The notes below the pieces were generated by a model, which worked only from the letters and a program-made list of their open reading frames with translations, was not told the DNA's origin and searched no databases. Both the position numbers and the translations under genes were made by a program. From a virus, in IMG/VR virus record IMGVR_UViG_3300017729_000001, positions 1 through 64,000 of that record: DNA of 64,000 nt, one strand, 5' to 3'. Shown piece after piece: positions 9,577 to 12,426 of the stretch. The stretch's first letter is position 1. Every line of letters begins with the position of its first letter.

Positions 9577-12426
9577 CTACCATCCTTGTAATCTTTTCAT
9601 ACTGCCAACAGATGAATCATCTTTGGGTTTGCGCTTTCTTTCTGATGCTTCAGAATGTGACGCAACTCTCTCTTTAACTTTCGCATCCAAGTCAGGTAAA
9701 TTACCCCCTGAGTGCATCTCGTTGTAATGTTCAACAATATCATCGTGGTCTTCAGCCGTGGCATCTGAATAGTAATCATTATCTGCGTTTGCATCTACGA
9801 TTGGGTTGCCTGACCTCGTCCAGTTTTGCTTTCTTGTTGTCTCATCTTTTTTTTTAGAATCATCTTCAGGCGCATCCTTTTTTCTGTCTTCTCCTAGAAT
9901 CGCATCCAAAGCTGAATCCCATTCTTCTTTCATGCCTTCTTTTTCTTCGTCAGACATCATAGCACCTTCATCCCACTGACCTTTTCCCATTTCGGTTTCA
10001 ATGTCTTGTTCTGAATAACCCTCTTTTCTCAAGCCCATATATTGTTCAAACAATTTAGGTGTGTCCATTTCGCCACCTTGTCTGTTCCAAATATGCTCTC
10101 CCATACTTTCAATAGTCTTCAGTGCGTCAGGTGTAAATTCTTTTGGAGCACCCTTGTCCTCATTAGCAGTGTCCTTATTCTCTTTTGGCTCATCTGAACG
10201 ACCTTGTTTCTCCATTGGTCTTTCCACAGGTATGTCTTCTCTCTCTAAAAGGTCAGCCATAAGTTCTTTGGCATTATCCATACCATTTATAGTTCCTGTT
10301 TCACTCTCGCCAGTCCAGTCAGCAATATCGTGGTTTGCTAATACCTCATCCAAATCGTCAATATGAACTCCTTGTTTGAAATCTCCACCGAACATATCAT
10401 ATAACGCATCTTCAATATCCGACATTGCTATGTCCTCTTGCATCATCTGGTCAGGTGACATATTGTCTGTATCCGCAAACTTGTCTTTCTTCCTTTCCAT
10501 TGGAGTACCATCGTCATTATATCCGCCAGGCATATCCTCTTCATCATTTCTCTGCTCCTCATCTGAGTCATAGTCTTCACCCTCATCTTCTTCACGCTCC
10601 ATTTCACGCTCCATATCTTTCTTAGCCATTGGCTCATCATCTCCAGATGGTTCTTTTAACTTACTGTCGATTAATTCTTGAGCTTCAGAAACAACATCGG
10701 CCATATCTACATTATTCTCCATAAAGAACTGCGCAATATTGTCGGCAGTGCTTCCGCCACCCCCAGTTTCTTGAAAATCAAACCAATCTTTGTCTGCGTC
10801 AATCTCGTTTATTTTCCTTTCAATTATTATGGCAATGTCATCTTGTAGTTCTTCACTCAACTCGTTACCATCCCCATCTTCACCCATATCAACCATATCT
10901 ACTATCGAACCAAATTGCTTCATTGTAGATTCAACCGAACTTGGGTGGTCAGTATGACTTTTTAAATCATCTAGTGCTGATTGAGCAGCATCTATTTTGG
11001 AATGAGTTTCGCTATGGTCAGTCTTATTTGAATCCATCATCTTCATAGCTTGACCAGGTGTTATTCCGTGCTCTATTGCGTAATCAATTATAGAATCTCT
11101 GTCCTCATGACTAGCAAGTGCCTCTTTGACGCTTTCTGGATTGCTATAATCTATCTCAGCAGTTCCTTCACCCTCTTCACCTCGTCCAGAAAGTTCTTGC
11201 TTAGCATGTTCAGCATGTTCCCCATCTGGGTTTTTATCTAAATACGCTTTCAAGTCTTCACTTGAGGTTTCTTTAGCATGGTCTTCAGTGGTTTTAGTGC
11301 CTTTTGGTTCGCTTTCTTCCTCTTCCTCAGGTTGCTTCTTTTCTTCTTGTCCTGACTCATCCTCACCTTGCTTCACCCATCTCGTGGTCTGTCTTCCTTT
11401 ACTATCAGTAAGTTGTTTTTTAACCAAACCACTTTTTCCACCTCCTGAACCTGAATCTCCACGACCAGCAAAATCCATATGACCTTTAACTATGGTGTCA
11501 AAATCTTCTAAAATATCATCTATTCCTTTTGTAAGATTTTCTGCTTCCCATTCTCTTTGATACTTTTCACCATCAGGTGTCTTATCAAAAATCTTTTCTT
11601 CTTTTCTTTCAAGGTTTGAAATTCTGATTTTTAGGTCTTTCATCTGAGGAACAAGTTTTTCCATTTTGGCTTCGACTTCCATCATCATGCCTCCATATCT
11701 ATTCCCATCCGCATCACTCCACTCTTCACCTTTTTGACCAGCCTCATTATTCATGTCTGAATCTAGTTGCTTCAACTCATCTCTACAGTATTTATACTGC
11801 TCAGCTAAATCTTCCAACTCATACTCAAGGTCTTTTCTTGCTTCTTCAACTTTAGCAATTTTAGCATTTCCTTTTCTTTGCTTTCTGCGTCTTGTTGGAC
11901 TTGCTGACTTATCAGCATCCATATATTGTTCTCTGTATTCAGCACTGCTTCTTTCCTCACGTTCTGCTGACGCATCTAACTCAGTTTGGTTTCTAGTTAT
12001 CTGAACAACTTCGCCTGTGTCTTCATCCACGAAATCTTCAACCCACGTTTTGACAACTTTCTCCCATTTACCATCGGCTTTCTTTTTATACTCTTTGCCT
12101 TTCCAAGTTCTAACTTCTCCAATTAGTGCTTTCTTGCCTTTCTCTATATAAAGAGTTTGTTTGATGCCTCTTTCATCAACAGCTTCGATTGGTTGTAAAC
12201 AATCCAATTGCTCTTGCGCCTTCAGTAACTCACTAGTGTTAGTTGCTTTATTAATAGCCTCACTTATGAATCCTTTGACAACATCTTCTGAGTAAATTTT
12301 ATTGTCAGAATTTTCTGACTTTACTTCAGCAAGGCTTTTAATTGGGTCACTAGACACTTCATTAAAACCCTTTAGTATTGTAAGTTTCCTCTGAGCAATT
12401 CGCTCATGGATTGTTTTATCAATCAT
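9577..12426 (-). CDS. Large acidic putative head-internal protein with cleavable pro-region and RpoB-like peptide
   Basis: 949 aa, D/E-rich, repeated hydrophobic-x-K-[GAS] motifs, GEVRTWKG and GLVKKQ...RWVK motifs; directly upstream of portal. Confidence 0.6.
   Translation of the reverse strand: [949 protein letters not shown]

Follow-up and report, generated by a model that had tools for sequence, protein, structure and literature searches.

Why would a phage protein encoded among head genes carry a piece of the host RNA polymerase (RNAP) β subunit? The question is raised by a 64,000-nucleotide stretch of viral DNA (positions 1 to 64,000 of IMG/VR record IMGVR_UViG_3300017729_000001; hereafter the window), in which a 949-residue open reading frame (ORF), P0002, contains a 24-residue peptide that a first-pass annotation had likened to Bacteroidota RpoB. 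Our analysis indicates, with high confidence, that this peptide reproduces, at the protein level, the hairpin in the β-i4 insertion of RpoB, and that selection maintains the copy in phage proteins that belong to the head module, within a module that is both conserved and exchangeable. For the function of the copy, we assign a probability of roughly 45% to the reading that P0002, a head-module protein that is possibly packaged, displays the hairpin as a decoy or adaptor for the host helicase UvrD. Three features, given in window coordinates, are central to the argument.

9577–12426, minus strand: P0002, the 949-residue ORF that carries the hairpin, mostly acidic and of low complexity (from the ORF listing).
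11989–12060, minus strand: copy of the RpoB β-i4 hairpin, residues 123–146 (from phmmer, translation and BLASTP, with strands from AlphaFold2).
12004–12030, minus strand: VDEDTGEVV, residues 133–141, which fits the PcrA/UvrD helicase interaction motif (pattern from PMC8318588).

Translation of the reverse complement of positions 11989–12060 gave the 24-residue peptide as first read, at residues 123–146. When residues 97–160 were compared by phmmer with 177,635 distinct sequences of the Protein Data Bank (PDB), two matched and both were RpoB: 9n9p_C (residues 242–274, E = 1.5e-6) and 8dkc_C (E = 0.02), which come from the RNAPs of Flavobacterium taeanensis and Porphyromonas gingivalis, respectively (bioRxiv 10.1101/2025.06.10.658880). 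A search of 5.8 billion proteins with residues 100–160 returned 10 matches at E ≤ 0.01, two of them copies of the query protein and eight with RpoB Pfam domains (seven of 1264–1273 residues and one 661-residue fragment), including one named RpoB from a Bacteroidetes metagenome-assembled genome (MAG; P0011). BLASTP of P0002 against P0011 gave a single significant segment, residues 123–159 against 243–279, with 23 of 37 positions identical and E = 3e-9; residues 123–146 thereby correspond to approximately 243–266 of Bacteroidota RpoB. All remaining segments had E > 1, with no RpoB likeness elsewhere in P0002, and a Pfam scan of P0002 found no family above cut-off, RpoB domains included. The near-exact match proposed in the first-pass annotation was confirmed by these searches, as was its statement that the rest of the protein is unrelated to RpoB.

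Eighteen consecutive residues are identical in P0002 and P0011. The back-translated pattern of this 18-mer, run against a genome collection of 185,579 species, was found in four contigs, all from Bacteroidota MAGs and each in an rpoB context. Compared with these four rpoB genes, the phage DNA is identical at 45–47 of 54 nucleotides overall and at 9–11 of 18 third codon positions, for 18 of 18 identical residues. Because the codons are mostly two-fold degenerate, identity at third positions is close to chance, indicating that the identity is held at the level of protein; a recent transfer of DNA from a host rpoB gene was rejected on the same counts. Chance or compositional similarity, for which the 26% content of aspartate plus glutamate (D+E) in P0002 could speak, deserves practically no credence and was refuted by the PDB search, the 18-mer scan and the pairwise BLASTP: the 18 identical residues stand in a row and include W, F, T and G, the E values are 1.5e-6 (PDB) and 3e-9 (pairwise), and the segment is kept in 14 phage proteins. 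Judged from these comparisons, the RpoB match is far beyond chance. Two other proposals were dropped. The 18-mer was rejected as a predictor of the host, as the four genomes that contain it differ from other RpoBs at just two variable positions, and the idea that the hairpin is invariant across the phylum was withdrawn: the RpoB rows had been picked by likeness to the query, so their uniformity is partly a selection effect, and in an even sample the exact pattern occurred in 13 of 61 genomes.

The first-pass annotation had placed the RpoB counterpart in a lineage-specific insertion of β. An RpoB fragment covering residues 235–397 (P0081) can be aligned with Actinobacterial RpoBs from its residue 68 onward only, and with E. 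coli β from its residue 15, at position 298 (approximately RpoB residue 249), and Bacteroidota RpoB residues ~236–302 have no counterpart in Actinobacterial RpoB. In E. coli, β-i4 (also called SI1 or dispensable region 1) spans residues 225–343 and is built of BBM2 repeats; it is compact and surface-exposed and packs lightly on the β2 lobe, burying 618 Å2 (PMC2939025). The points at which P0081 alignments start therefore put the hairpin in the β-i4 position, in agreement with the annotation. By sequence, Bacteroidota RpoB ~236–302 is a β-i4-type insertion with one BBM2-like module, and the phage peptide copies its tip hairpin. P0002 itself is not an insertion in the β2 lobe of an RNAP β subunit, and homology over a whole BBM2 module (~55–65 residues) is absent from it, as identity drops past residue 146; downstream of the hairpin, the AlphaFold2 model has a long helix that runs into a coiled coil.

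The peptide belongs to a family of phage proteins. HMMER with residues 97–170 against 1.84 billion representative sequences gave 83 matches at E ≤ 0.001, and BLASTP of these against seven RpoBs identified most of the short ones as metagenomic RpoB fragments. The relatives other than RpoB (P0013, P0014, P0015, P0018, P0019, P0020, P0021, P0022, P0025, P0066 and P0068), two proteins added by a second search (P0099 and P0100) and P0002 make up 14 family proteins. This search and a scan of IMG/VR bore out, for phage proteins, the earlier suggestion that similar peptides occur in other Bacteroidota mobile-element proteins. A 1094-residue tandem-repeat protein (P0017) that scored E = 2.6e-9 with zero aligned stretches is likely a repeat artefact and was ignored. 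IMG/VR pattern scans with P0002 as the single query, and with the portal protein, gave no relatives. The family shares a module of ~200 residues, which is laid out in P0002 as follows.

12136–12147, minus strand: I94-E95-K96-G97, the hydrophobic-x-K-G string before motif A, left edge of the cassette and candidate protease site.
12055–12138, minus strand: motif A, residues 97–124, a short β-meander of 28 residues that recurs in giant polyvalent proteins.
11491–12126, minus strand: exchangeable cassette, residues 101–312, comprising motif A, hairpin, basic linker and helical hairpin (P0002 versus P0020).
11581–11898, minus strand: long helical hairpin, residues 177–282, with predicted local distance difference test (pLDDT) values >90 in AlphaFold2.
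11524–11535, minus strand: LTKG string, residues 298–301.
11482–11493, minus strand: I312-V313-K314-G315, right edge of the cassette (string scan and comparison with P0020).
9580–11481, minus strand: acidic tail of P0002, residues 316–949 (from composition).

Across the family, the order is hydrophobic-x-K-G, motif A (consensus G-E-[IV]-R-x-W-x-G-x-x-Y-x-K-x-x-x-G-x-W), then the hairpin, followed by basic S-P-S-x-x-R-R-x-R-K residues and by a long helical hairpin whose turn, D-M-x-x-E-A-G...W-x-D...N-x-Y-G (DM..EAG..G..W.D...N.YG), is conserved. The hairpin is the most conserved part of the module: in the 10-sequence family alignment (A1), the invariant columns are M1, G119, V133, D134, D136, T137, G138 and E139, six of the eight lying inside the nine-residue motif, and D-T-G-E is kept in 14 of 14 family proteins. 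P0020 is 98–100% identical to P0002 over residues 1–100, 10–48% over 101–300 and 76–98% over 301–400, with break points just past IEKG-KKA and just before IVKG-HMDF (~313). This pattern points to an exchangeable cassette bounded by hydrophobic-x-K-G strings, both of whose alleles keep the motif, as VDEDTGEVV in P0002 and VDEDTGEIV in P0020. Further mosaic blocks separate the two proteins past residue 450. The IEKG (94–97) and LTKG (298–301) strings that the first-pass annotation put forward as putative cleavage sites releasing a fragment of about 200 residues are present, as putative sites only, and the right boundary of the cassette is IVKG at 312–315 rather than LTKG. The helical hairpin scored 19.3 bits against the WXG100 model (cut-off 27.3), below the level for membership. 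Residues 301–949 have a net charge of −102 and a D+E content of 27.5%; a DNA-mimic or capsid-filling role is conceivable for the C-terminal ~650 residues, which have no recognised domain.

A candidate partner for the hairpin comes from work on Bacillus subtilis. There, hydrogen–deuterium exchange mass spectrometry shows a short peptide in the SI1 of RpoB to be protected by the Tudor domain at the C-terminus of PcrA; the peptide (VDPETGEIL in B. subtilis, IDESTGELI in E. coli) is an exposed β-hairpin with a T-G-E tip, and mutation of its Glu abolishes pulldown (PMC8318588). A PROSITE-style pattern, [VIL]-D-x-x-T-G-E-[VIL]-[VILT], also retrieves UvrB and other PcrA partners, for which it is reported to be highly specific, and UvrB competes with RNAP for PcrA (PMC8318588). 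VDEDTGEVV fits this strict pattern and is the sole match, strict or loose (D..TGE), among the 46,824 residues that open frames encode across the 90,429-bp phage. Eleven of the 14 family proteins match the strict pattern, with P0013, P0021 and P0066 missing it at the last or second-last position. AlphaFold2 models of residues 1–300 (10-row alignment, mean pLDDT 78.7) and 92–152 (12-row alignment, mean pLDDT 69.5) both predict strands at 127–133 and 140–146, joined by a loop at 134–139 (D-E-D-T-G-E) that places T-G-E at the tip of the hairpin; further strands are predicted in motif A at 104–108, 111–115 and 121–123. Foldseek with the 300-residue model found no PDB match at E ≤ 0.001, and the Flavobacterium RpoB chain, at rank 10 with E = 0.32 over 82 columns, is too weak to count as support. 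With the 61-residue model, the highest Z that VIA-align reached among 48,161 chains was 2.1, and no fold was assigned to motif A plus hairpin; a search of the ESM Atlas with residues 1–300 gave no usable feature match, all structure rows having TM values <0.5. In a complex prediction of the UvrD C-terminal domain (4-row alignment) with residues 92–152, run with no control pairs, the score was 0.23 against a mark of 0.32, a value that speaks neither for binding nor against it.

The Tudor partner occurs in the relevant bacteria. PcrA_UvrD_tudor (PF21196) scored above cut-off in all four MAGs with the identical 18-mer: three carry it at the end of 770–792-residue frames, and the fourth (G003) at the end of a frame of 215 residues. 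An even draw of genomes from the phylum gave the domain, likewise above cut-off, in 61 of 61. The phage encodes a helicase of the same family.

35327–36892, minus strand: UvrD-family helicase, 521 residues, TTG start (PF00580 and PF13361).

This helicase ends with UvrD_C and has no PF21196 match at E ≤ 10; thus, a Tudor decoy would hit the host helicase and spare that of the phage. By analogy with PcrA, and by the fit of the motif, PcrA/UvrD is a concrete candidate for the host factor that the first-pass annotation had proposed to be titrated through mimicry. The mechanism would run as follows. The captured tip hairpin of the β-i4 BBM2 module, which sits close to the N-terminal end of a large acidic protein, would dock by its tip on the Tudor domain of host UvrD, as decoy or adaptor; docking would pull UvrD off RNAP or tether it to the phage protein, and the phage's Tudor-less helicase, supplied meanwhile, would escape the decoy. 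What speaks for this reading is the RpoB-specific copy, its β-i4 position, the motif fit and the predicted T-G-E loop, together with conservation of the motif throughout the family, its survival of the cassette swap, the presence of the Tudor domain in the host phylum, the Tudor-less phage helicase, the setting near the portal and terminase genes, and the link through motif A to polyvalent proteins. Binding to UvrD, the direction of the effect (sequestration or recruitment), packaging, injection and proteolytic release are steps that we infer, the last three (with cleavage at K/G) from gene context and the link to polyvalent proteins.

The virus record of the phage (G000) is complete at 90,429 bp, carries direct terminal repeats and provides the following setting within the window.

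7912–9528, minus strand: portal gene, directly downstream of the P0002 ORF (PF04860, E = 1.8e-20; phrog_12, E = 4.5e-54).
13500–14540, minus strand: 5-hydroxymethyldeoxyuridine (5-hmdU) DNA kinase, two genes upstream of the P0002 ORF (PF18723, E = 1e-50).
20728–22404, minus strand: terminase large subunit (TerL), upstream and in the same direction (phrog_38, E = 6e-62).
51565–52188, minus strand: sigma-70 region-2-like ORF, 207 residues, with a marginal Pfam score.

On the minus strand, the order is TerL, several ORFs including the 5-hmdU DNA kinase, the P0002 ORF and the portal gene. The kinase gene implies hypermodified thymidine in the phage DNA. The closest relatives of the portal protein are in Chryseobacterium phage MA9V-3 (42%), Bacteroides DAC phages (39%) and then SPO1-like Bacillus phages; with Chryseobacterium and Bacteroides phages as best matches, the Bacteroidota host that had been claimed stands as plausible. 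In the one other context examined, IMG/VR locus L007, a 259-residue family member begins 2 nucleotides past the end of a portal gene, and the family gene thus adjoins the portal gene in two of two contexts examined. This adjacency would also suit a structural role, in which the hairpin is a building block of a scaffold-like or portal-associated head-assembly protein and has no host target. Such a role, to which the long coiled-coil hairpin after the module (as in scaffolding-type proteins), the presence of only half of BBM2 and the possibility that D-x-D-T-G is kept for turn geometry also lend weight, is in our judgment unlikely. Synonymous sites are near chance while 18 of 18 residues match RpoB, a solvent-exposed Glu is invariant and six of eight invariant columns fall in the motif, the motif survives a cassette swap at 10–48% identity, which is more than a turn needs, and the motif is reported to be highly specific for PcrA partners (PMC8318588).

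Compared with the decoy or adaptor reading, an action on RNAP itself, in which the module docks on or beside the β lobe at injection and redirects host RNAP together with a phage sigma-like factor, is improbable. The phage has at least one ORF resembling sigma-70 region 2 (51565–52188), the search of its genome with residues 97–170 gave no second RpoB-like match, so that it may rely on the host RNAP core, and RNAP modifiers that enter by injection, T4 Alt among them, have precedent (PMC5512222). Against this, a copy of a surface element is expected to compete for partners rather than to bind RNAP, P0002 shows no resemblance to known RNAP-binding domains in Pfam and PHROG scans, and the sigma match is marginal: the Pfam scan scored it at 22.9 bits, under the cut-off of 24, and a genome search that took in its neighbours in the frame at 25.9 bits. 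PF08281 (Sigma70_r4_2) has no match anywhere in the phage; the first-pass annotation had counted two phage sigma factors, and with two Pfam models just one sigma-like ORF was found.

A second phage family also copies the hairpin. Scanning IMG/VR with the family alignment gave 26 loci: the family member at L007, a 96-residue ORF (L030) and 24 others (L008–L029, L031 and L032; for example, L014:7887–8765). The 24 encode proteins of 242–366 residues, the N-termini of which resemble RpoB ~225–285 over ~50–60 residues (98 in L008) at 43–59% identity. Nine of the 26 loci were scanned, and all nine match phrog_35807, six of them over >120 residues; DUF4494 matches were found in four of the nine, one above cut-off. 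The only PHROG match of P0002 is to this same family, residues 122–151 against profile positions 31–60 of 283. In L014, the phrog_35807 gene has Sak4, NinB, NinG/Rap, a helicase and replication genes as neighbours. The 96-residue phage ORF at L030:7800–8087 ends in the hairpin (22 residues), where TITR resembles the QITR of P0002. The motif Glu is often lost in the second family, and hairpin copies thus persist without the residue that is critical for PcrA, which may point to a different partner or to a structural function; judged from sequence, this family may work differently.

These proteins bear on the possibility that the hairpin mimics β-i4 for another Bacteroidota-specific partner, such as a transcription or repair factor, and that the fit to the UvrD/PcrA motif is incidental to RpoB origin. 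The likeness to RpoB covers both strands (KTWVEDF ... QITRN) with flanks that are partly conserved in the P0002 family, phrog_35807 proteins copy a longer stretch, often without Glu (15 of 24) and fused to DUF4494 of unknown function, and two papers, including bioRxiv 10.1101/2025.06.10.658880, describe the insertions of Bacteroidota RNAP as uncharacterised and likely factor-binding. Yet in the P0002 family it is the motif tip that is invariant, Glu included (14 of 14), rather than the flanks; there is no known candidate partner, and a literature search on DUF4494 found nothing. We regard a different partner as a minority possibility, well short of the odds for UvrD.

Several observations weigh against UvrD as the target. 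Only the hairpin half of BBM2 is present in P0002, where significant alignment stops at RpoB 279; of the 24 second-family loci, 9 retain the motif Glu and 15 have Q, K, N or D in its place; and only 13 of the 61 phylum genomes sampled contain the exact VDEDTGE[VIM][VIM] DNA pattern. Confidence in the β part of the models is moderate (pLDDT ~70–79). Function of the motif has been shown in B. subtilis only, with E. coli by analogy, and binding of RpoB to UvrD in Bacteroidota would likewise be an analogy. UvrB from two Bacteroidota MAGs (L039 and L040) lacks any D..TG string; competition by UvrB, as published, may thus not hold in this phylum, where the helicase interaction motif may, from these sequences, be on RpoB only. 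Finally, tblastn of the 949-residue protein against 50,697 phage records found no match, leaving no cultured relative known. A fuller version of the decoy reading adds that the protein is packed and co-delivered, that a protease-released fragment of ~200 residues captures the Tudor domain of host UvrD at infection and strips UvrD from RNAP, that this disables backtracking, R-loop removal or excision repair on hypermodified-thymine DNA while the phage helicase takes over, and that the cassette is swapped for host adaptation; taken as a whole, this version is doubtful.

Packaging is suggested by motif A, which also occurs without the hairpin, often in several copies (up to three per protein). 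Its hosts include giants of 1113–2551 residues with ART-PolyVal, LPD1, RadC-JAB, Sno-type helicase or topoisomerase IB domains, and the unit was found in P0016, P0023, P0028, P0029, P0042, P0057 and P0077 in addition to the window.

12055–12147, minus strand: motif A unit of the window, with its preceding hydrophobic-x-K-G string.

The repeat unit takes the form hydrophobic-x-K-[GAS] followed by G-[ET]-[IV]-R-x-W-x-G-x-x-Y-x-K-x-x-x-G-x-W, and in none of the proteins scanned did a Pfam family reach its cut-off over this unit. By its distribution among these sequences, motif A is a separate, mobile unit, and it could combine a processing site with a packaging tag. Polyvalent proteins are proposed to be packaged and injected by phages (PMC5512222). 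The pairing of motif A with hydrophobic-x-K-G ties a repeat of polyvalent proteins to a head-module protein, which is useful for finding packaged cargo.

The role of β-i4/SI1 is poorly understood, and the one protein contact mapped on it, that with PcrA/UvrD, comes from B. subtilis alone. A protein-level copy that is kept across diverged, recombined cassettes constitutes independent evolutionary evidence for a functional docking site in Bacteroidota, and it suggests a previously undescribed phage strategy of titrating or hijacking the host UvrD helicase. A literature search, judged on its listing, found no phage-borne helicase interaction motif; if UvrD is the target, P0002 would be the first phage-encoded mimic of this motif and would offer a handle on β-i4 function in Bacteroidota. 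A module of ~55–200 residues, with E139 as a one-residue negative control, makes a small, testable reagent.

Four known systems invite comparison. The P0002 peptide has its homologue in the hairpin of the one BBM2-type module of Bacteroidota RpoB (Iyer et al., 2004; Lane & Darst; both cited in PMC2939025), but the second half of the repeat, a helix and the last strand, is undetectable in P0002, where the hairpin is joined to an unrelated β-meander upstream and a coiled coil downstream. The phrog_35807 proteins, like P0002, are Bacteroidota-type phage proteins that copy the same RpoB hairpin; they differ in their longer RpoB likeness, their DUF4494 partner domain, a locus (L014) without a head-gene setting, the absence of motif A and of a coiled coil, and the frequent loss of Glu, whereas P0002 has no PF14902 match and falls short of the full phrog_35807 length. 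With polyvalent and packaged effectors (Iyer et al., 2017, PMC5512222; T4 Alt, P1 DarB/DdrB), P0002 shares motif A preceded by hydrophobic-x-K-G/A/S, large size and a head-gene context. Those proteins combine at least two effector or LPD domains, whereas P0002 has no enzymatic or LPD domain and has the short motif A alone in common with them; its putatively packaged payload would be a docking hairpin, a coiled coil and an acidic tail. In relation to the helicase motif of RpoB SI1 and UvrB (Urrutia-Irazabal et al., eLife 2021, PMC8318588), P0002 is a phage protein outside the RNAP and repair proteins, with the hairpin only and putative binding, and the competing UvrB of that system lacks the motif in two Bacteroidota MAGs. 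P0002 nevertheless shares with this system the nine-residue pattern and a predicted T-G-E-tipped hairpin, its sequence derives from the RpoB version, and the Tudor partner occurs in the host phylum.

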